Shown piece by piece: positions 6,762 to 60,942 of a stretch of DNA of 64,000 nt. Numbering within the stretch: the stretch's first letter is position 1; each line of letters opens with the position of its first letter. The DNA is from Candidatus Adlerbacteria bacterium (lineage in GTDB: Bacteria > Patescibacteriota > Minisyncoccia > Phycocordibacterales > SBAW01): positions 1,073-65,072 of the forward strand of contig JAQBRA010000002.1 of the NCBI GenBank assembly GCA_028286685.1, written 5' to 3'. The notes beneath the pieces were generated by a model. The model was given only the letters and a program-made list of their open reading frames with translations, did not search any database and was not told where the DNA came from. Both the position numbers and the translations under genes were made by a program.

Positions 6762-6833
6762 GGCCACGTAGCCAAGTAGAAAGGCGCGGGACTGCAAATC
6801 CTGTATGCGCGGGTGCGATTCCCGCCGTGGCCT
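6762..6833 (+). tRNA. tRNA-Cys(GCA)
   Basis: Cloverleaf with acceptor GGCCACG/CGTGGCC, anticodon loop CTGCAAA, and T-arm GGGTGCGATTCCC. Confidence 0.8.
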
Positions 6834-7008
6834 CAAGGAGAGTATTCGACGCTGGGGCCACGGAGAGAAGCATGGGATGCTTCTCGTCGGGAATCGCAAG
6901 CCGGAGCGGGCCCCATGCCTCTTGGCATGGGAGCGAGGCAGGGCCGTGCGGCACATGATCCAGTGGTATCATGTGAACGCCTGGCCGATCCGCCGTGGCC
7001 TCAAGTTT
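6834..7008 (+). repeat. tRNA-linked structured repeat element, copy 1 (ends with a 16-nt duplicate of the tRNA-Cys 3' end)
   Basis: Conserved core aagccggagc...gcgaggcagggccgtgcggc...gaacgcctgg plus two hairpins that covary against copies 2 and 3. The terminal ccgccgtggcctcaag repeats 6823-6838. Confidence 0.6.
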
Positions 7009-7012
7009 ATTT

Positions 7013-7096
7013 GCCGGGGTGATGGAATGGTAGACATAGGGGACTTAAAATCCCCAGAGCTAATATCTCGTGTGGGTTCGAGTCCCACCCCCGGCA
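7013..7096 (+). tRNA. tRNA-Leu(TAA)
   Basis: Acceptor GCCGGGG/CCCCGGC, anticodon loop CTTAAAA, long variable arm, and T-arm GTGGGTTCGAGTCCCAC. Confidence 0.85.
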
Positions 7097-7101
7097 CCGG
7101 T

Positions 7102-7980
7102 ATGGATTTTTTATACGGAAAGCTAGAGCAAGCACCTGAGGGTTTTTGTCCACCTGAGATGTGGCCTGAGTACGCGATCGTGTCCCAGCCTACCTGGCCC
7201 TGCACAAGCGAAGGTGTAGGCAAGGACCCCAGCGGCGTACGCTGGGGTCTATGGCCCTTTACCTTTGAAGACTACATAAGCGACAAAGAACCAAACCTGC
7301 AGGAGTCGCGCAAAGGCACACTGGCCCGCAATCGCGTTATTACGTGGGAGCGCGTGCGCAAAACCAACATACCCCGGGGATGGATGCAGTTTAGCAGAGC
7401 ACCCTCGCGCATAGATGGCGTTTTATCCCTAGATCAAGATCAGGATTATACCCTTTCATGGAATAAGAATGCCCGCCGCGATTTGCGAATTTTTAAAGAC
7501 AAAGTGGCAAGCGGGCTCTATGCAGTAGTGCCGATTTCAATGGATGCGTTTGCAGGTGCTTACCGACAAAGCCTGATAGCCCAACGTGTTGATCTCCGCC
7601 GCCTCGAGGATCTTGAGCGCAAGTTTGCACATCCAGCCGCGCAAGGACATATAAAATTATGGGGTGTTCGTAACACTCAAACTGATGCCATAGTAGCGGG
7701 CACTGCTATTAATTATTCTCCTACCTATAAAAACTCGACTCATATTGCGCCCTTTATACTTGAGGAAGGGCGCCACCTCTGCGCCGCAACGGGGCTTATT
7801 GACCATTGGTTTGCAGAATCCATAAAACACGGCTGCACTTTTGCAACCACGCTCAACTTTTGGTTTAAGGGCCAGCCCAAAGAGTGGCGCGGGTTTTCTG
7901 AATTCAAATCGCACTTTGGGTTTCAGTTTGTGGCCTATCCACCTCGGCTCTATAAGTTCGTTTTAGGGAAGATTTTTTAA
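7102..7980 (+). CDS. FemAB-like / GNAT-fold (Acetyltransf_6-type) acyltransferase family protein; low-GC, likely acquired
   Basis: C-terminal GFSEFKSHFGFQFVAYP matches the FemAB/BioF2-like G-x-x-FK-x-x-FG motif. GC is visibly lower than its surroundings. The ORF-track start at 6805 would run across two tRNAs, so the ATG at 7102 was used. Confidence 0.4.
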   Translation: MDFLYGKLEQAPEGFCPPEMWPEYAIVSQPTWPCTSEGVGKDPSGVRWGLWPFTFEDYISDKEPNLQESRKGTLARNRVITWERVRKTNIPRGWMQFSRAPSRIDGVLSLDQDQDYTLSWNKNARRDLRIFKDKVASGLYAVVPISMDAFAGAYRQSLIAQRVDLRRLEDLERKFAHPAAQGHIKLWGVRNTQTDAIVAGTAINYSPTYKNSTHIAPFILEEGRHLCAATGLIDHWFAESIKHGCTFATTLNFWFKGQPKEWRGFSEFKSHFGFQFVAYPPRLYKFVLGKIF

Positions 7981-7989
7981 ATTTTTAGT

Positions 7990-8133
7990 ATTTCGCACTA
8001 GTGGTCAGGCGTTCAACATGCGCCGTCGCACACATTGCCGCACGACCCTGCCTCGCCGTCCTGCAAGCGTAGGACATGGCTCCGGCTCGCACACAAGCAG
8101 AAAGCCTCCCGCAGGGGAGGCTTTCTGCTTGTG
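7990..8133 (-). repeat. tRNA-linked structured repeat element, copy 3 (downstream of tRNA-Lys)
   Basis: On the minus strand: a long hairpin with a GCAG loop (8092-8133), then the conserved gagccggag...cgaggcagggtcgtgcggc...gaacgcctga core. The terminal repeat of the tRNA-Lys 3' end is degenerate. Confidence 0.55.
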
Positions 8134-8206
8134 TGCGCCTACCTGGATTCGAACCAGGGACAATCTCCTTAAGAGGGAGCTGCTCTACCAACTGAGCTAT
8201 AGGCGC
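8134..8206 (-). tRNA. tRNA-Lys(CTT)
   Basis: The reverse complement reads GCGCCTATAGCTCAGTTGGTAGAGC...anticodon loop CTCTTAA...GTCCCTGGTTCGAATCCAGGTAGGCGCA. Confidence 0.8.
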
Positions 8207-8335
8207 GAGTGAGGCTGGCACCAGGAATTCGTTCCTGATTGCCCGAACGAGCGGCCTATATGATTTCTCATATAGGCGCATCCGAACAGGAAAAATATAG
8301 CATAAAAATGGCTTTGCGCATAGAATGGCGATATC

Positions 8336-8417
8336 GCTGGAGTGGCGGAATTGGTATACGCGCCAGTCTTAGGAACTGGTCCCGCAAGGGTTGGAGGTTC
8401 AAGTCCTCTCTCCAGCA
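8336..8417 (+). tRNA. tRNA-Leu(TAG)
   Basis: Acceptor GCTGGAG/CTCCAGC, anticodon stem-loop CCAGT-CTTAGGA-ACTGG, long variable arm, and a TTCAAGT T-loop. Confidence 0.8.
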
Positions 8418-8429
8418 CAATTTTGAAAA

Positions 8430-8463
8430 GCTAAAATCCCCTTTATTTTAAGGGGATTTTAGC
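8430..8463 (+). terminator. hairpin terminator after tRNA-Leu(TAG)
   Basis: gctaaaatcccctt-tatttt-aaggggattttagc, a 14-bp stem. Confidence 0.5.
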
Positions 8464-8491
8464 TTGACAAACCCATACAATATGATATAAT
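8464..8491 (+). promoter_or_regulatory. sigma70-type promoter for the SPFH operon
   Basis: TTGACA, a 16-nt spacer, then TATAAT, about 80 nt upstream of the 8574 start. Confidence 0.6.
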
Positions 8492-8573
8492 AGATAGCGG
8501 ACGGTATGGTCTGCCCTAAGGCGACTCGTATCAAAAATTCATCGCACTTCGACAACAGAATAGGGGTCTTAAA

Positions 8574-9734
8574 ATGACACACATGGACGTTGCTCCAGGT
8601 CCGGATATCGTCAGTCGAGATACGGACCGAGTCGACACTTATCCCGCCTACTACTTCCTCGCACTCATTGTGCTTGCGGCGGCCTGGTTTCTGACAGGTC
8701 TCGTATTTTACGGGATACCCGTCGGATACGGCAGCTTAACGATCTACATGAGCACCGTCATCTGGGCTTTGGGAGCCGCGCACTTTGCGACCAGCTTCAG
8801 GATTGTAGAGCCTGACTACTTCGCTGGCGTCCTGGTGTTCGGAACGCCGACCGTTGTCGTGACTGGCAAACCGCTCTTGGTGCCCATGGGAATCTTTAAA
8901 GTCATAGAGATCTCCCGGGGCATCATCCAAATGGAGCTGCCCAACGAGCCGAATCTCATCTTCCGCAAAGAGGATGTAGAGATTGTTCCTCCTGGCATGT
9001 CACCCCCAATCCGGGTGACCTTCAAGAAGGGAGTGGCAGGCGACGATGGCTTTGATCCAAACGATCCGTTTGATGACAGGTCGACTCAAGAAGTGACTCC
9101 TATCATTCGCTTCAGGATTCAAGACGAAGAAGGGTTCTGGACGTTCTTCGTAAGGCTCGGAGGATTCGACGAAGCGCGCAAGCAAGCCGAAGACATGAGC
9201 ATCGCCGTTCTCCAGCAGTGGCTGACAGCACTCACTCTTCGGCAAGCTTTCGCGGGTATCGGAACAATCAACCGACATTACGACGATTACATCCGAGCGC
9301 AGACTAAAGGATGGGGCATCGAGATCGACAGTGCACACATCAAACTTATTGGCCTGTCGCACTCCTTCAATACAGCCATCCAGGATATCCCGCGCGCCAA
9401 AGCCGAAAAACTTGCTCGAACTTCTCGGGCAGAAGCTAAGCAGATTGAGCTCACGCGCGAAGGACTCGGCGAGGCTAATGCCAGAAAAGCACTTCTTTTT
9501 GCTGAAGCCTCTGGTCTTGAAGAGAAAGCGAAGTCACTTGGCGTAACCGGACACGACATGCTCGGTGCCGATACGGCCCGAGCGATCGGAGAGTCCGGCA
9601 ATATGATTATTGTCGGCGCTCAAGGCCTTACGGAAGCCGTTACCGCCGCGTTTGCGGCGGGAAAAGGCATGCAAGGAAAACCCAAACCCACACCCCCTGC
9701 CACTGAACCAGGCACACCACCCACTGGAGCATAG
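8574..9734 (+). CDS. SPFH/Band-7 (stomatin/flotillin-like) domain membrane protein
   Basis: N-terminal TM helices, then an SPFH-like core (...IRFRIQDEEGFWTFFVRLGGFDEARKQAEDMSIAVLQQWL...), then an Ala/Glu-rich coiled coil and a Pro-rich tail. Confidence 0.6.
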   Translation: MTHMDVAPGPDIVSRDTDRVDTYPAYYFLALIVLAAAWFLTGLVFYGIPVGYGSLTIYMSTVIWALGAAHFATSFRIVEPDYFAGVLVFGTPTVVVTGKPLLVPMGIFKVIEISRGIIQMELPNEPNLIFRKEDVEIVPPGMSPPIRVTFKKGVAGDDGFDPNDPFDDRSTQEVTPIIRFRIQDEEGFWTFFVRLGGFDEARKQAEDMSIAVLQQWLTALTLRQAFAGIGTINRHYDDYIRAQTKGWGIEIDSAHIKLIGLSHSFNTAIQDIPRAKAEKLARTSRAEAKQIELTREGLGEANARKALLFAEASGLEEKAKSLGVTGHDMLGADTARAIGESGNMIIVGAQGLTEAVTAAFAAGKGMQGKPKPTPPATEPGTPPTGA

Positions 9735-9736
9735 AA

Positions 9737-10642
9737 ATGGAACTGACTTACGGAATCGCTATCTTTGTCCTCGTGGTGTTTTCCGTTTATTTTGGAAGAC
9801 ACTGGGAAAAGAAAGGCTCTACACGTATCAGCAGACCATCCCCCGTAACCCCTTCTACCAGAACACCGGAAGATACCGCAAACGAAGACAAAACTCCTCC
9901 TGCGGCTTCTGGCTGGTGGAAAGCGATAGGGGGCGTATCTGGTCGGTTTGTAACCTATTGGTCGACAAACTGGGCGTATGTTCTTCTGCCGCCCGCAGCG
10001 GTAGCACTGTCCCTTGTCCTGTTTGCATACTCCTTCCCTGAATGGTGGTGGTCATACAAACAATGGAATGGACCGACCTGGCAACTTGTGGTTGCCACGC
10101 TCGCACTCGGACTTATCAAGGTCTCTCCTCTCGCGCCCTCTTGGCGCGGGAGACTTACGGCATTAGTGCTCGTATTCGCGGTCGGAGCCTTTGTGTGGAC
10201 ACTTCTTGTCCGGGCTCCGTTCTTCTGCGCTCCTGGCGACACCGCGTGTCGCCAGGAGGAAGCCCGGGTGGCGAACGAGAAGCGTCTGGCCGTCCTGCAA
10301 GATCAGGCACGGCGCGCTAAACAAGAGCGGCGTGATGCAGTGGCACGAACGGACTGCACCCATGGCGTGTTGGCGACCATAGAGCTCAACCAAGAGCCGG
10401 TCACATTCCCCAACCGCTGCGTGTTTATCTTCGATATTACGGCCGGACCTGTCTGGTTCAAGGGCAGGGACGGCACTGTTGTCGGAGGCAGCACCGGAGT
10501 TACTGCAGGAGCTCGAGTGCCATGGCCCAGCGGGTTTCGACTCCTGGGCGCATGGTCGCGAGGCAACGGCAAGCTCGAAGGCGTCTTCTGCCCGGAAGAG
10601 CGGCCGGTATGGCGCAGCGGAACTTGCTCGCATACCGGTTAG
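9737..10642 (+). CDS. multi-pass membrane protein, partner of the SPFH gene (NfeD-like role possible)
   Basis: Start is 3 nt after the SPFH stop. It has four predicted TM segments, then a Cys-containing soluble C-terminal domain. No recognisable family. Confidence 0.4.
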   Translation: MELTYGIAIFVLVVFSVYFGRHWEKKGSTRISRPSPVTPSTRTPEDTANEDKTPPAASGWWKAIGGVSGRFVTYWSTNWAYVLLPPAAVALSLVLFAYSFPEWWWSYKQWNGPTWQLVVATLALGLIKVSPLAPSWRGRLTALVLVFAVGAFVWTLLVRAPFFCAPGDTACRQEEARVANEKRLAVLQDQARRAKQERRDAVARTDCTHGVLATIELNQEPVTFPNRCVFIFDITAGPVWFKGRDGTVVGGSTGVTAGARVPWPSGFRLLGAWSRGNGKLEGVFCPEERPVWRSGTCSHTG

Positions 10643-10677
10643 CAAACTTAGTTCTTACTGAAATCCCTTCTGGGGTA

Positions 10678-10709
10678 CGCAGGACCAATTGGTCCTGCGT
10701 TTTTCTTTT
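10678..10709 (+). terminator. rho-independent terminator
   Basis: cgcaggaccaattggtcctgcg followed by tttttctttt. Confidence 0.7.
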
Positions 10710-10792
10710 CCCAAAAACCCTTATAAAAGGCCGTCTTTTGCTCCCCTCTCCCATCACTTGACTTTTATACTCAAGTATGCTACTATTGATAT

Positions 10793-11269
10793 ATGCAAAA
10801 GACCCTTATAACCACTGCCGTGTTGGCCGCGCTTTTTGCTCCTCTATCAGCTATAGCCGCCTCGGTACCCACCGGATACTCTTACGACCCGGGCTATTCC
10901 TACACGCCTGGATACTCATATACCCCTGGCTACTCTATCCCGTCCGGCCACTCTGAAAACTCAGGCACTTCTATATCGTCGGGCCAGTCAATCTCAAGCG
11001 GTTCATCCATACCGTCGGGCCACTCTATACCTTCCGGCTACTCTATCCCCTCCGGACACTCGATACCTTCCGGCCATTCCGTAGAATCGGGACACTCTAT
11101 ATCGTCCGGCCAGTCCATCCAAACCGGCCATTCTATACAGTCGGGTTACTCTATTAGCTCCGGACATTCCATACAGTCGGGCCGCTCTATTCAGACCGGA
11201 TACTCAATACCTTCCGGCCGCTCCATAGAGTCCGGACATTCGATAGAGGGAACAAAGCTCAGCTGGTAA
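10793..11269 (+). CDS. secreted His/Ser/Gly-rich hexapeptide-repeat protein
   Basis: Signal peptide MQKTLITTAVLAALFAPLSAIAAS, then about 20 tandem S-I-x-S-G-H/Y/Q/R hexapeptides (18-bp DNA repeats). Confidence 0.6.
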   Translation: MQKTLITTAVLAALFAPLSAIAASVPTGYSYDPGYSYTPGYSYTPGYSIPSGHSENSGTSISSGQSISSGSSIPSGHSIPSGYSIPSGHSIPSGHSVESGHSISSGQSIQTGHSIQSGYSISSGHSIQSGRSIQTGYSIPSGRSIESGHSIEGTKLSW

Positions 11270-11282
11270 TACCCCGAAAGCC

Positions 11283-11325
11283 AAAACAAAACTCCCGGAC
11301 TTACGTCCGGGAGTTTTGTTTCTGC
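11283..11325 (+). terminator. rho-independent terminator (bidirectional hairpin)
   Basis: aaaacaaaactcccggac-ttac-gtccgggagttttgtttt. Confidence 0.7.
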
Positions 11326-11335
11326 ACTTACTACA

Positions 11336-11617
11336 TTAGCAAGGCAAATTGCCGCCAACCATAGTAGAGATAAGTTTTATGATTGCAATGGCGGAGACCA
11401 TGATAAACATGCCTCCCAGGCCCCACAGCATATGCTGTTTGCCCTCTTCTTTCTTGCCGGCCTCATTGCTTAGGCCCCACAGAAATTCCACAAGCCCCCA
11501 GACGAACACCAAAAGCCCTGCCGCGAATATGAGTGCGAGTAGCGGGTTTATAAACGCCTCGGTCAGCTTGCCGACGATGGTGCAGGTAGCGCTATTTGTA
11601 ACGGCAGCAGATAGCAT
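11336..11617 (-). CDS. VirB2/TrbC-like (T4SS-pilin-like) small membrane protein, paralog 1
   Basis: Two hydrophobic helices with the shared F-x-W-G-L-V-x-F/Y-L-x-G ... K ... L-x-W-G-L ... motif. Confidence 0.5.
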   Translation of the reverse strand: MLSAAVTNSATCTIVGKLTEAFINPLLALIFAAGLLVFVWGLVEFLWGLSNEAGKKEEGKQHMLWGLGGMFIMVSAIAIIKLISTMVGGNLPC

Positions 11618-11622
11618 GATTA

Positions 11623-12018
11623 TTATGGGGTATACCCGTCTTTACCGAAGAGAGGGCCGCTGCTATTGCCATACTGTATCTGCGGGGCTTTTCCTCGGGC
11701 ATTTTCATCGATACCGAGCGCTTCTTGCATAAGGGCAACAATACCCCAAACCGACACCATAACAAACAAGGTTATAAGGCCCCACTTCATCAGGTCCTTG
11801 CCCTTCTCGTGCCCGCTCTTGCTCGATGCCCCCCACAGGTAGCGCACCAAGCCCCAGAAGAACACGACCAGCGCTAGGGTAATGAGTATCGGTATGAGCG
11901 CTCCTATAAGACTCCCAAAAGCCCCTAAGAGGCTTTCAATAGGCGACAGGTTAAGTCCTTGGGCAGAGGCCCATGCGGGCAAAGCGAACAGGAGCAAAGC
12001 TGCAGACCTTTTTATCAT
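11623..12018 (-). CDS. VirB2/TrbC-like (T4SS-pilin-like) small membrane protein, paralog 2
   Basis: Signal peptide, then ILITLALVVFFWGLVRYLWGA...KDLMKWGLITLFVMVSVWGIV. Confidence 0.5.
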   Translation of the reverse strand: MIKRSAALLLFALPAWASAQGLNLSPIESLLGAFGSLIGALIPILITLALVVFFWGLVRYLWGASSKSGHEKGKDLMKWGLITLFVMVSVWGIVALMQEALGIDENARGKAPQIQYGNSSGPLFGKDGYTP

Positions 12019-12372
12019 TTACGGTACGAGTGCTTTAGGAGAGAGGACATCTGCATTGCGCTGGACACCCAAAGCATCCTGGGCCAGGCGGACAATGCCC
12101 CAGACCGACACCATGACAAACAAAGTTACGAGACCCCACTTCATCAGGTCCTTAGCACCGGCGGTGTTTGACTTGCCGCCAGCGCCGTACAAGTAGCGCA
12201 CCAAGCCCCAGAAAAAGACAACGAGTGCCAAGGTGATGAGTATCGGAACCAAGGCGGCAACGAGGCGGCCTACGGCGCCAATAAGATTGGCCAAAGGCTG
12301 TAGGCTCTGAGCCGAAGCCGCAAGCGGCAGTGCTAAAGAAAGGGCTGATAGTGCGGCGAAGGTCTTTTTCAT
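12019..12372 (-). CDS. VirB2/TrbC-like (T4SS-pilin-like) small membrane protein, paralog 3
   Basis: Core is near-identical to paralog 2 (ILITLALVVFFWGLVRYLYGA...KDLMKWGLVTLFVMVSVWGIV). The tail differs. Confidence 0.5.
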   Translation of the reverse strand: MKKTFAALSALSLALPLAASAQSLQPLANLIGAVGRLVAALVPILITLALVVFFWGLVRYLYGAGGKSNTAGAKDLMKWGLVTLFVMVSVWGIVRLAQDALGVQRNADVLSPKALVP

Positions 12373-12455
12373 TAAAATAACTTAAACGGGTATGGCTCTA
12401 TTCTAGCAGGCCCCTGCTCTCTTTTGCTTTGCCGTGTGGATAACAAAGGGCCAGG

Positions 12456-12698
12456 TTAGGCCGGCAGGAATATCCCCTGTAGCAATTGCAGTATGCCAAA
12501 TATGGATACCAGCACAAACAGCGCCACCAGGCCCCAGCCCAACAGCTCTTTTTGGCCCTGCTTGTCATGCGAGTCGCCGGACAGGTACAAGAACCGTACT
12601 GCGCCCCATAAAAATATGGCCAGCGCTACCGAGCCCAAGAGAGCCACCAGGACGTTTATAACGCTAATTATCTGGCCAACGAGGACGGAAAAAGTCAT
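12456..12698 (-). CDS. VirB2/TrbC-like (T4SS-pilin-like) small membrane protein, paralog 4
   Basis: LAIFLWGAVRFLYLSG...KELLGWGLVALFVLVSIFGIL. Confidence 0.45.
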   Translation of the reverse strand: MTFSVLVGQIISVINVLVALLGSVALAIFLWGAVRFLYLSGDSHDKQGQKELLGWGLVALFVLVSIFGILQLLQGIFLPA

Positions 12699-12701
12699 AT
12701 A

Positions 12702-13148
12702 TTAGCGGCCACAGAACTGTATCGTACCGCTGGTATCGAGCGTTTGGATAGTTGCCGAAATGATGCTGGCCAAGGTCCAAGCGCCCAGGAATATGGCAAT
12801 GCCTAAAATGACAAACTTAAAGTTCCTTTTAGCGTCGTCGAGCCCTGTCGCGCTGCCACGGGCCAATATAAACCTGAAACCCGACCATACTAAGAACAAG
12901 ACCGCGATCGGCATGCCTATCGCCATAATAATGTTGAGCAGGGCCTTGACCAGGTTGCAGAAATCATCAACGCCCAGCGGGTTACACAACTTAAAAGTAC
13001 CTCCTTGTGATCCGCAATCAGAGCCTGTGGGAACGGAATTTTGATATGTCCCTGTCTGGACAGAGTTTGCCTGCGCCAAAGCAAATTGTGGAATAAGTAT
13101 TATTCCACAAAGGATGAGCGAGGTTGAGATAAATTTATAAAATTTCAT
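12702..13148 (-). CDS. VirB2/TrbC-like small membrane protein, divergent Cys-containing paralog 5
   Basis: Signal peptide, a Cys-rich N-terminal part, then AVLFLVWSGFRFILARG...KRNFKFVILGIAIFLGAW. Lower GC than the others. Confidence 0.4.
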   Translation of the reverse strand: MKFYKFISTSLILCGIILIPQFALAQANSVQTGTYQNSVPTGSDCGSQGGTFKLCNPLGVDDFCNLVKALLNIIMAIGMPIAVLFLVWSGFRFILARGSATGLDDAKRNFKFVILGIAIFLGAWTLASIISATIQTLDTSGTIQFCGR

Positions 13149-53403: not shown

Positions 53404-53712
53404 ATGGCTTTGGCTACCCCTCTGGCACACAAAAAAGGCGGCTGTCCCGTACAAAAAACGGCCACTTTGCTGAGCGATACATGGACCATGCTTATCATCC
53501 GGGACCTCCTTGAGGGCCCTAGGCGCTTTTGCGACCTCGAACGCTCGCTTGAGGGCATATCGACCCGCACCCTGACCTTGAAGCTCAAAATCCTCGAGTC
53601 CGAACGGCTTATTAAGAAGCTCAAAGACGGCAGCTACTCGGCGACTCCCCGGGGCAAGGGCCTGCGGGTAGTCGAAAGCGCCATGCGCCGGTATGGAGAG
53701 AAATTTTTATAA
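53404..53712 (+). CDS. HxlR-family transcriptional regulator
   Basis: CPVQKTATLLSDTWTMLIIRDLLEGPRRFCDLERSLEGISTRTLTLKLKILE. Confidence 0.75.
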   Translation: MALATPLAHKKGGCPVQKTATLLSDTWTMLIIRDLLEGPRRFCDLERSLEGISTRTLTLKLKILESERLIKKLKDGSYSATPRGKGLRVVESAMRRYGEKFL

Positions 53713-53788
53713 ACTGTGCGGAATAGAAGCTGGGACTTATATTCCTTCCCTCGCTCGCAAATAATAGCGGGCTTTATTTGTCTCACTC

Positions 53789-53961
53789 GGGTGCGGAATG
53801 GGAATCGGTCAGGCGTTCGTATAATGCCGTCGCATTATACGCCGCACGACCCTGCCTCGCTCCCGTGCCCGCTGGCACGGGGCCCGCTCCGGCTTTCGAT
53901 TCTCCACACAACCCGCCCCGCGGGTCGTTCATTCCGCACTCTTGTCACTATAGTTCCTCGG
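53789..53961 (-). repeat. tRNA-linked structured repeat element, copy 2 (ends with a 20-nt duplicate of the tRNA-Gly 3' end)
   Basis: In tRNA orientation: hairpin, then gaatcgaaagccggagc, covarying hairpin 1 (cgtgccagcgggcacg), gcgaggcagggtcgtgcggc, covarying hairpin 2 (gtataatgcgacggcattatac), gaacgcctga, and ccgattcccattccgcacc, which repeats the tRNA 3' end. Confidence 0.6.
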
Positions 53962-54032
53962 TGCGGAATGGGAGAATCGAACTCCCGCCCGTTGCTTGGG
54001 AAGCAACTGTTCTACCACTAAACCAATTCCGC
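53962..54032 (-). tRNA. tRNA-Gly(CCC)
   Basis: The reverse complement reads GCGGAATTGGTTTAGTGGTAGAAC...anticodon stem-loop GTTGC-TTCCCAA-GCAAC...GGGAGTTCGATTCTCCCATTCCGCA. Confidence 0.8.
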
Positions 54033-60649: not shown

Positions 60650-60942
60650 ATTTAGCGCGCGCGTCTGTAAGCCGAGTTCTGTCGTGGGCTGCAATTTATC
60701 TGGGCCCAGAGTCGCCCCTGGGCTCGAGCGGCACTCCGCAGTTGCCTGCGGCACGGCCTTGCACCCGGGTAGGGATTTTGCCGTTTCACCCGAACTAAAT
60801 CGGTTCGTCACTGTTCGCACCCCTTACGACCGCTAATATCGTACGGCAGGCGTTACCTGCTACCTTGCTACTGCAGTTGCCCGCAGTGGGAGCTCGGACT
60901 TTCCTCTCCGTCTTGCGACAGAGCTGCAACCAAACGCGCTTT
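60650..60942 (-). ncRNA. rnpB: RNase P RNA (bacterial type A, compact)
   Basis: The minus-strand transcript contains AGGAAAGUCCGAGCUCC (P4 5' strand), GGUAACGCCUGCC, GGGUGAAACGGC and ACAGAACUCGGCUUA (P4 3' strand). P1 pairs GCGCGUUUG with CAGACGCGC, and a hairpin follows. Confidence 0.75.

Follow-up and report, generated by a model that had tools for sequence, protein, structure and literature searches.

A structured module, apparently undescribed, at tRNA 3' ends in a syntenic tRNA cluster of Candidatus Adlerbacteria

In a 64-kb stretch of DNA from Candidatus Adlerbacteria (hereafter the window; mean GC content 0.577), four tRNA genes and two copies of a repeated element surround a single gene of low GC content. 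Is this gene cargo that was delivered between two tRNA-targeting elements, and what are the elements themselves? The initial annotation, made from the sequence alone, had proposed a small genomic islet carrying a FemAB-like acyltransferase gene, possibly extended by the SPFH operon that follows. The four tRNA genes that it reported were all detected by both ARAGORN and Rfam, tRNA-Lys(CTT) being located on the minus strand, and the two repeat copies, inverted with respect to each other, were recovered as well. Their supposed tie to tRNA genes could be specified as an association with tRNA 3' ends. As a whole, the locus is best explained by a vertically inherited gene cluster accompanied by a structured RNA module which piggybacks on tRNA genes, an explanation that we consider probable, if only modestly so. 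The module is apparently undescribed, well supported and present in a branch of the candidate phyla radiation.

The module has a length of 140-170 nucleotides (nt) and comprises a 5' arm with complementarity to its own tRNA's 3' end, a core of about 90 nt and a tail in which the tRNA 3' end is repeated (7-24 nt in a long form, CAC plus trailer in a short form). Copies 1 and 2, on both sides of the low-GC gene, share the conserved blocks AGCCGGAGC, GCGAGGCAGGGYCGTGCGGC and GAACGCCTGRCC, and their intervening hairpins differ in sequence and stay paired. A 21-mer of the core has 3 matches in the window for 0.02 expected by chance. A covariance model of the element, R1, detected exactly three copies in the window with scores of 93-108 bits, the third one being located after tRNA-Gly(CCC). 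The coordinates of all these features are collected in Table 1.

Copies 1 and 3 belong to the long form. In copy 1, a linker is followed by a copy of the tRNA-Cys acceptor 5' strand (GGCCACGG, 6856-6863), a GGG-loop hairpin (6865-6885), a stretch antisense to the T loop and to the 3' strand of the T stem (6888-6896), the three-way-junction core (6899-6986) and a 19-nt tail (6987-7005). This tail repeats tRNA-Cys from the T loop through the 3' end, together with a CAAG trailer. The tRNA-Cys gene has no encoded CCA and its discriminator base is the U at 6833. In the core of copy 1, helix H2 is formed by GCC/GGC, a GGA/GA internal loop and a variable stem, and helix H3 by GGCCG/UGGCC, a U.C mismatch, GCG/CGC, a G/AA loop and a variable stem. 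In copy 3, the acceptor-5' copy is found at 53939-53930, the hairpin at 53929-53907, the anti-T segment at 53905-53897 and the core at 53894-53807, before a tail (53806-53789) that repeats the tRNA-Gly 3' end. Copy 2 is of the short form. A perfect hairpin of 23 base pairs (bp), with arms at 8137-8115 and 8110-8088, takes the last 5 nt of tRNA-Lys into its lower stem (CGCAC:GUGCG), and is followed by the core (8087-8003) and the tail ACUAGUGCGA (8002-7993). Among the loci fetched from relatives, which are cited here by their L numbers, orthologues of copy 2 are found after tRNA-Lys in L003, L085, L022 and L069. For copy 1, the orthologous site is filled in L003 and empty in L085.

Rfam 15 returned no family on copy 1 (6835-7005) or copy 2 (7993-8132), neither at gathering scores nor at E<=10, and full-text literature searches yielded no published description of the element. 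The nearest published work concerns group I introns that lie within Patescibacteria tRNA genes (PMC13011429).

The distribution of the element was analyzed by scanning one genome per GTDB species with an exact 20-mer of the core. Seventy stretches were obtained, and about 50 of them also contain the flanking blocks. These true copies are labelled Adlerbacteria, Kaiserbacteria, Nomurabacteria, Paceibacterota, Parcubacteria, Minisyncoccia, Patescibacteria or "uncultured Saccharibacteria", and the matches in other phyla are all devoid of flanking blocks. A scan of Joint Genome Institute (JGI) metagenomes provided 71 further loci. In total, about 115 distinct exact copies were obtained, all of them on contigs with a Patescibacteria label or from relatives. 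In the fetched loci, R1 gave 163 matches (75 + 88), including diverged units and tandem arrays. A phage origin was also considered and rejected: a scan of IMG/VR with a 17-mer of the core gave 9 matches, all without flanking blocks and with a best covariance score of 17.9 bits.

The link to tRNA genes was then counted on 113 distinct exact cores. Eighty-one of the 113 lie no more than 135 nt 3' of a tRNA gene on the same strand, and these tRNA genes represent 17 amino-acid specificities. Eight cores are second units of tandem arrays or carry an insertion, 9 are at contig ends and 15 have no tRNA called by ARAGORN within 400 nt. Among those 15, a single core comes after a tRNA that a group I intron interrupts (L149), and five come after the decayed copy of a tRNA 3' end, leaving 9. 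Of the copies that can be placed, about 90% have a tRNA on the same strand directly before them. Conversely, a core was found downstream of 23 of 129 tRNAs (18%) when the copy that had brought in each locus was excluded. These counts indicate a near-obligate link of the element to tRNA 3' ends. The assignment of the short form (class A) and of the long form (class B) by the discriminator base was tried and found to be a tendency only, Tyr being seen in class B and Trp in class A.

Several of these loci carry additional features. In L149, the group I intron (1322-1629, 64 bits) lies in the tRNA before the element, and this tRNA is missed by ARAGORN, in agreement with the published introns (PMC13011429). 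In L054 (3856-4900), L104, L138, L027 and L043, 1-1.3 kb separate the tRNA from a decayed 3'-end copy and the element. The block of L054 contains two small membrane-protein-like genes and is bounded by a GGGTCA repeat. Judged from the sequences, these tRNA ends evidently also receive other DNA, which displaces the element downstream. The L137 locus (8209-9905) consists of tRNA-Ile, an element, 1.2 kb, a second element and tRNA-Leu. The 1.2 kb contain a minus-strand open reading frame (ORF) and a pair of ORFs which by eye resemble a HicB/HicA toxin-antitoxin system, and Rfam detected nothing in the 1.5 kb between the two elements. A direct repeat of about 55 nt (CAGACCGAGA...GGTCCTTAC) lies on both sides of the HicAB-like pair, precedes elements of L111 and L156 too, and has ...GGGGCAC as its end. 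It may represent either a cassette boundary or another family of structured repeats.

How does the element relate to the tRNA which it follows? The short form was seen with Ile, Val, Arg, Leu, Ala, Phe and Lys tRNAs. It starts with a hairpin of about 22 bp directly after the tRNA, with two conserved bulged A, whose lower stem takes in the last 3-5 nt of the tRNA. The hairpin continues into the acceptor stem, and its 3' arm constitutes the 5' arm of the module. Over 56 distinct hairpins of this kind, G.U pairs outnumber A.C mismatches by 20 to 3. In 76% of the cases, the 5 nt that precede the core show complete complementarity to the end of their own tRNA, compared with 22% for non-cognate ends, and the duplex between arm and tRNA 3' end is predicted at -14.4 kcal/mol for cognate and -8.6 kcal/mol for non-cognate combinations. 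The pairing of the arm with the tail is weakly cognate in the short form (-8.2 versus -6.6 kcal/mol) and strongly so in the long form (-14.0 versus -10.4 kcal/mol). The short-form core ends in GACCAC, which resembles the ...CAC of its tRNAs, and in arrays the next unit joins there likewise. The long form was seen with Cys, Gly, Ser, Asp, Gln, Glu and Tyr tRNAs. The core is preceded by the acceptor 5'-strand copy, a hairpin often closed by a GGG loop and the anti-T segment, and it is followed by 9-24 nt that copy the tRNA, starting in its T loop and running past the discriminator. In this form, a cognate acceptor-stem copy of 7-8 bp stacked on a T-stem-like helix can be drawn. On these comparisons, the 5' arm appears firmly cognate to its own tRNA.

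The core was examined by RNAalifold on an alignment of 46 distinct cores. It forms a nearly invariant three-way junction of about 90 nt in which 98.4% of the cells are paired. H2 contains GCC/GGC, an invariant GGA/GA internal loop and a variable stem, and H3 contains GGUCG/UGACC with an invariant G.U, a U.C mismatch, GCG/CGC, a G/AA loop, a variable stem and a GACG loop. The invariant stem of H3 corresponds to GGGUCGUGCGGC...GAACGCCUGACC. Changes on both sides were observed in 16 of the 29 pairs, for a total of 201 cells against 56.5 +/- 7.6 after shuffling, a value that none of 500 shuffles reached. The covariation score is 0.407, compared with 0.126 in shuffled alignments and at most 0.088 when the partners are slid. 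About 50 invariant nt sit in the junctions and internal loops, and the peripheral stems covary freely. In the variable pairs of the core, 19 G.U (plus one invariant pair) were counted for 4 A.C, and this large excess of G.U over A.C pairs designates the tRNA-sense strand as the folding one. The alignment thus argues strongly for a strand-specific fold that is maintained by compensatory changes.

Three other readings of the structure were tried and discarded. An aptamer-terminator of riboswitch type on the opposite strand disagrees with the excess of G.U over A.C, and only antisense tRNA lies downstream on that strand. An intron in the T loop, with the downstream repeat as the true 3' exon, disagrees with the degenerate downstream copies of L003, L037, L056 and the window. 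A K-turn in the GGA/GA loop was rejected as well, as the sequence does not fit the consensus with a 3-nt bulge.

The tRNA-Cys site allows the comparison of an empty and a filled state. In L085, the empty site ends in ...GGCCU-CCA-GG. In L003, tRNA-Cys now precedes CAAGGAG and has no CCA, and the copy displaced past the element keeps GGCCU-CCAG. This pattern is the footprint left by recombination within the 3' part of the tRNA. In L037, a duplication of 13 nt takes in the CCA as well as the trailer, and has no possible pairing partner within the element. Tandem arrays of elements occur, and tails are decayed in L035, L037, L053 and L056. At orthologous sites, the core is invariant while the variable stems have been fully rewritten by compensatory changes. 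The decay of the tails, together with the invariant core at these sites, implies that copies arise by insertion and that resident copies are under purifying selection. The sequences compared thus point clearly to a gain of copies by insertion with duplication of the tRNA 3' end. The properties of a miniature inverted-repeat transposable element (MITE) were not found, the flanking inverted repeats differing with each target tRNA and the duplications covering 7-24 nt. Those of an integron attC site were not found either: in place of RYYYAAC...GTTRRRY core sites, the flanking heptamers are CTTTGTG...CACAAAG-like or derived from the tRNA, and no integrase was seen.

A degenerate second repeat of the tRNA-Gly 3' end (TTCTATTCCGCACA, 53715-53728, minus strand) was also observed 60 nt past the tail of copy 3. 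It abuts the stop codon of a convergent ORF of 102 amino acids (53404-53712, plus strand), which by the look of its sequence may encode an HxlR-type regulator. This second repeat suggests successive insertions at tRNA-Gly.

Table 1. Coordinates of the elements, tRNA genes, protein genes and promoter considered in the text (positions in the window).
Feature	Position	Strand	Support or remark
tRNA-Cys(GCA)	6762-6834	+	ARAGORN; Rfam tRNA 63.1 bits
Element copy 1, long form (class B)	6835-7005	+	Direct/inverted repeats; fold z-score -4.8; covariance model 93.3 bits
tRNA-Leu(TAA)	7013-7098	+	ARAGORN, Rfam
Gene of 292-amino-acid tandem-GNAT-fold protein, low-GC allele	7102-7980	+	Homologues, AlphaFold2, Foldseek
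Element copy 2, short form (class A)	7993-8132	-	Inverted repeat; fold z-score -7.1; covariance model 95.4 bits
tRNA-Lys(CTT)	8133-8206	-	ARAGORN, Rfam
tRNA-Leu(TAG)	8336-8418	+	ARAGORN, Rfam
SPFH operon promoter, consensus sigma-70-type	8464-8491	+	TTGACA-16-TATAAT, 12/12 match, TG extension
SPFH operon genes	8574-9734, 9737-10642	+	ORFs
Element copy 3, long form	53789-53959	-	Covariance model 107.6 bits
tRNA-Gly(CCC) preceding copy 3	53960-54032	-	Copy 3 directly 3'

The question of the islet was addressed by synteny. The order infB-rbfA-tRNA-Cys-tRNA-Leu(TAA)-gene-tRNA-Lys-tRNA-Leu(TAG)-two SPFH-type genes-type IV secretion system (T4SS) pilins was found in more than 10 relatives, in which the gene is 34-68% identical to that of the window. 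The gene occupies the equivalent site in L001, L002, L003, L022, L069, L083-L087, L090, L095 and L108, and the wider shared neighbourhood includes the genes for L33, ClpB, an aminotransferase, DUF4446, infB, rbfA and sometimes a methyltransferase before tRNA-Cys. L001 and L002 (48% identity for the gene) have this order with zero elements; their Cys and Leu tRNA genes abut and the gap between Lys and Leu is 7 nt. L085 and L086 (63%) have a sole element, after tRNA-Lys, and their tRNA-Cys is followed by CCA, 12 nt and tRNA-Leu. In L003 (61%), both elements are present. Since the order is constant while the element content varies, the gene and its flanking tRNA genes are ancestral and the elements come and go. 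On this comparative evidence, the region from 6.7 to 10.6 kb appears to be a vertically inherited syntenic cluster and not an islet.

The repeats lead to the same place. Direct repeats of the tRNA 3' end bound each 170-nt element, as in copy 1 with the exact 16-nt repeat CCGCCGTGGCCTCAAG (6822-6837 and 6990-7005), and do not bound the gene. The segment from about 7985 to 8290, which contains an upstream palindrome (CCTATAT...ATATAGG), tRNA-Lys and the element, is inverted with respect to L003, L085, L001 and L069, and the convergent orientation of tRNA-Lys seen in the window is also found in L022 and L087. The orientation of copy 2 is thus best read as an inversion of the whole promoter-tRNA-Lys-element module. 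Since both orientations exist among relatives, the module has flipped more than once or is invertible. Another arrangement of the same two tRNA modules was seen in L056 (7535-8000), where tRNA-Lys with its element on the plus strand and tRNA-Cys with its element on the minus strand are tail to tail, gene-free, with 16 nt between the covariance-model matches. This 8-kb locus contains no infB, rbfA or FemX-like homologue.

The claims of the initial annotation concerning the SPFH operon were partly confirmed. Its intermediate GC content (GC content at third codon positions, GC3, of 0.58-0.59 in both genes) and its consensus promoter, matching at 12 of 12 positions, are as described. The first gene gave a Band_7 match of 28.3 bits for a cut-off of 23.6. 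The promoter is found at the equivalent position in L003, L001 and L085; being conserved at the same place in relatives, it was not imported with an acquired block. The gene order of the operon is likewise conserved. A hairpin with 22-nt arms (8422-8471) follows tRNA-Leu(TAG) and overlaps the -35 box of this promoter. The GC content is lowered throughout 8.2-13.2 kb (0.46-0.56), where pilin-type genes were assigned by synteny with L001 and L003. The SPFH-type genes of the 8574-13148 region are about 30% identical between relatives whose infB genes are about 75% identical, and on these identities 8574-13148 looks like a fast-evolving surface-related region.

The gene between the elements encodes a protein of 292 amino acids. 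It is identical over its full length to the hypothetical protein P0001 of a Candidatus Adlerbacteria metagenome-assembled genome, which has 367 amino acids in GenBank, and 50 further homologues with 44-68% identity were collected. These 51 proteins mostly have 283-326 amino acids (median about 292), and their recorded Pfam domains are limited to two methyltransferase domains on a fusion of 479 amino acids, P0050. The GenBank ORF of P0001 (6805-7980, plus strand) starts upstream of tRNA-Leu(TAA) and spans that tRNA. Since most homologues have 283-326 amino acids, this start is probably wrong and the ATG at 7102 is the likely one. The gene would then begin 3 nt past tRNA-Leu(TAA), compared with 1-4 nt in L001, L003, L085, L087 and L090.

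The label of FemAB/Acetyltransf_6-like acyltransferase that had been given to this protein holds at the level of the fold and fails as a Pfam membership. The hidden Markov models of PF02388 and PF13480, like all other Pfam families, gave no match with the window protein at E<=10, and NCBIfam none either. The best value for PF13480 was E=0.037, in 2 of 38 homologues; GNAT families were weak. A family profile searched against PDB sequences returned nothing significant. The AlphaFold2 model, built with 38 homologues, reached a predicted local distance difference test (pLDDT) score of 94.9 and a predicted TM-score (pTM) of 0.90. When this model was compared with the PDB by Foldseek (E-values of 1e-10 to 1e-7, TM-scores of 0.5-0.63), the top matches were tandem-GNAT aminoacyl transferases depending on aminoacyl-tRNA: Sba18/Sbb17 (1e-10), the Ala- and Lys-phosphatidylglycerol synthase domains of MprF (9e-9), FemX (1e-8) and FemA (4e-7). 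The tandem-GNAT fold shared with FemX/FemABX, the C-terminal aminoacyl-phosphatidylglycerol synthase domain of MprF and Sba18/Sbb17 extends over all 292 amino acids, but the sequence identity is only 9-14%, and Pfam and NCBIfam models all stay below threshold. FemA and FemB have about 400 amino acids and a coiled-coil arm, whereas the window protein is shorter. The protein is thus predicted to be FemX/FemAB-like by fold, though not a Pfam member. The position of its gene, adjoining tRNA-Leu(UAA) and before tRNA-Lys(CUU), suggests co-transcription and perhaps a specific donor tRNA.

The composition of this gene deviates as the initial annotation had stated: its GC content and its GC3 are both 0.50, the latter being the lowest of the window among ORFs of at least 200 amino acids, compared with 0.76 for infB, 0.84 for rbfA and 0.69-0.84 for the neighbours. 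Does this make it acquired cargo? The islet model, in which the gene, perhaps with the SPFH operon, was brought in between inverted tRNA-targeting elements, could call on this minimum (the other ORFs range from 0.58 to 0.84), on a divergence from L003 and L085 greater than that of its neighbours and on the inverted orientation of the bracketing elements. Deviant composition is, however, the only feature of a genomic island that was observed. The gene is not absent from the relatives' site: it stands with both flanking tRNA pairs in more than 10 relatives, including element-free genomes. The repeats do not bound the cargo, no integrase or transposase was found among the approximately 30 window proteins scanned, nor any other recombinase, the SPFH promoter and gene order are conserved, and the inversion of the tRNA-Lys module accounts for the orientation. 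The islet is therefore very improbable and, as an insertion of new cargo, it is refuted by the conserved synteny. A weaker version of it survives as allelic replacement, in which the gene, possibly with the inverted tRNA-Lys module, would have been exchanged by homologous recombination with a relative of lower GC content, the tRNA genes serving as homology. Such a replacement is suggested by the GC3 gap with the orthologues (0.73 in L003, 0.68 in L085, 0.60 in L001), by a divergence in excess of that of infB (for the gene, identity to L003 and L085 is 61-63% and these two share 73% with each other, for about 76% in all three infB pairs) and by the nearest homologue (68%), which is found on L087, a contig with a GC content of 0.50 where tRNA-Lys also lies directly after the gene on the opposite strand. 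Yet 68% identity is far from a recent donor, the tRNA-Lys of L087 has no element, and the SPFH and pilin genes are also of lower GC content and about 30% identical, which fits relaxed or diversifying evolution as well. The low-GC allele can equally well be read as the product of fast evolution in a surface-related region, and we regard the replacement as a possibility of some weight that is nevertheless doubtful. It is compatible with a vertically inherited cluster carrying a tRNA-linked module.

For the module itself, the mechanism that would go with a piggybacked RNA is the following. Transcription from the tRNA promoter would continue through the module. The long stem formed by the tRNA 3' end or trailer with the 5' arm would act as a processing signal, of RNase III type or for the tRNA 3' end, and as a termination signal, and would separate the tRNA from a stable three-way-junction small RNA that binds a protein and mimics a tRNA end. 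New copies would arise via recombination in tRNA 3' ends. This chain of read-through, stem processing or termination and release of a partner-binding RNA is quite conceivable, although as a complete sequence of events we lean slightly against it. Several observations weigh on the other side. The G.U bias is the sole ground for preferring RNA over folded single-stranded DNA, in which G.T wobbles would mimic it. The short-form hairpin between the tRNA and the core resembles the A-tract/U-tract terminators of the genome and could halt transcription before the core: its upper stem followed by UUUCUG or UUUUGUG is terminator-like, with the U tract paired to the A tract, although the terminator scan made no call at 8088-8137. 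Pairing of the 5' arm intrudes on 3-5 bp of the acceptor stem, which would hinder tRNA folding rather than aid it. Minimum free energy (MFE) folds of the precursor give a strand-swapped conformer, and MFE did not discriminate between the conformers. Where tails include copied trailer nucleotides and have since decayed, they resemble scars of insertion more than a functional mimic. Clustering of the ORFs of at least 70 amino acids around 50 copies revealed no enriched family and only syntenic housekeeping genes (Mur ligases, LepA, S20, RuvA). Finally, some GenBank taxon labels, such as 'uncultured Candidatus Saccharibacteria', may be imprecise, which makes the phylogenetic breadth uncertain.

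Could the module be mobile DNA instead? In this alternative, it is a non-autonomous element whose core, closed by the antisense arm and the tRNA-end repeat, serves as a folded single-strand recombination site comparable to attC or to the attP of the CTX phage; it enters tRNA 3' ends through a recombinase whose gene lies elsewhere, and the units stack as cassettes with or without cargo. The duplication of 7-24 nt of the tRNA 3' end, trailer included, the ancestral CCA-bearing end pushed downstream in L003, the sites polymorphic for presence or absence, the tandem arrays in which each unit is joined to the GACCAC end of the preceding one, the cargo of 1-1.3 kb between tRNA and element (L054, L104, L138) and the HicAB pair between the elements of L137 are all in agreement with it, and the conserved bulges could serve as extrahelical bases of attC type. 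But no recombinase, nuclease, reverse transcriptase, integrase, transposase or HUH enzyme was found near the approximately 50 copies, nor an integrase, transposase, HUH enzyme or reverse transcriptase among the scanned proteins of the 64-kb window, and no copy was found in the viral contigs of IMG/VR. The core stays invariant at long-resident orthologous sites while the flanks decay, which points to selection on resident copies, and attC conserves its structure and not some 50 nt of sequence. Moreover, the antisense arm fits the upstream tRNA and not the 3' end of the element itself, which a cassette model does not predict. We therefore hold the mobile DNA to be unlikely. A core acting in cis as a catalytic or ligand-sensing RNA that controls the maturation of the upstream tRNA is still less probable. 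It could be a self-cleaving ribozyme that the antisense arm guides to the tRNA 3' end, or a switch whose arm alternates between two partners, the tRNA 3' end, with the acceptor stem blocked, and the downstream repeat, with the core closed. The approximately 50 invariant nt concentrated in junctions and internal loops, with covarying peripheral stems, are in its favour; the arm has two alternative partners, with strong cognate pairing to the tRNA in the short form and to the tail in the long form (weak to the tail in the short form), and two nearly isoenergetic conformers are predicted. On the other hand, no ribozyme or riboswitch of Rfam matched at E<=10, the core lies downstream of a terminator-like hairpin, which is the wrong order for a classical switch, the decay of the downstream repeat in several lineages removes the second conformer, and only about 18% of the tRNAs carry the module.

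The piggybacked module can also be compared with systems already known. Integrative elements that target tRNA genes use tyrosine-integrase att sites in the T loop or 3' end and carry a replacement tRNA 3' end. As in these elements, the segment from the T loop to the 3' end is repeated directly on both sides with a crossover from the T loop, the native CCA end is displaced (L003) and repeated insertions occur at one tRNA. The module differs by its 140-170 nt without integrase or any protein, by its inverted copy of the tRNA end and by its covarying folded core. The integron attC and the folded attP of the CTX phage are single-stranded recombination sites, which share with it an inverted short pair closing a structured strand, conserved unpaired bases, arrays and strand-specific folding. 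In contrast to them, the module is found without integron integrase or Xer/dif context, has an invariant core where attC varies, targets the tRNA 3' end and extends its pairing into the flanking tRNA. RNAs piggybacked on tRNAs are represented by the plant dicistronic tRNA-snoRNA, MALAT1-mascRNA and the tRNA-miRNA units of gammaherpesviruses. There too, a structured RNA directly follows a tRNA on the same strand, which implies a shared promoter and a release by tRNA processing, whereas the present module is bacterial, is both complementary to and a repeat of its own tRNA 3' end, and occurs in many copies per genome with many isoacceptors. Correia/NEMIS, ERIC and BOX are MITE-like transcribed repeats of bacteria. 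They are likewise short, non-coding, multi-copy and intergenic, fold when transcribed and may carry processing sites, but have fixed terminal inverted repeats, short target duplications of fixed length and no tRNA specificity, whereas the repeats of the module derive from each tRNA. The known kinds of tRNA-linked small RNAs and tRNA-targeting insertions are thus related, and what is new is the element itself.

Patescibacteria have tiny genomes, reduced RNA-processing enzymes and an unusual RNA biology, with introns in their rRNA and tRNA genes. On the minus strand of the window (60652-60942), a bacterial type A RNase P RNA was also detected. It has 291 nt for a model of 367 positions, several elements being deleted, and scores 104.8 bits, just over the gathering score of 100; it fits a reduced RNase P of Patescibacteria.

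A bolder view is that the module represents a new kind of element linked to tRNA genes, in which base pairing allows an invariant three-way-junction RNA, or single strand, to read its own tRNA. We rate this as rather unlikely. If true, it would be either a cis-acting ribozyme or switch governing the 3' maturation or quality control of about one-fifth of the Patescibacteria tRNAs, or an insertion element for tRNA 3' ends that carries its own guide, with cargo such as HicAB and small membrane-protein genes. In covariation support, the module equals curated Rfam families, and it follows about one-fifth of the tRNA genes. It is also a source of annotation errors, as in the GenBank ORF extended over a tRNA and in spurious ORFs across the repeats. 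At this locus, the predicted fold of the 292-amino-acid protein links an enzyme resembling aminoacyl-tRNA-dependent transferases to a fixed place in a tRNA cluster, with Leu-UAA, Lys and Cys as candidate donors. The module would offer a handle on the making of tRNA in Patescibacteria, or on the entry of DNA into their tRNA genes.

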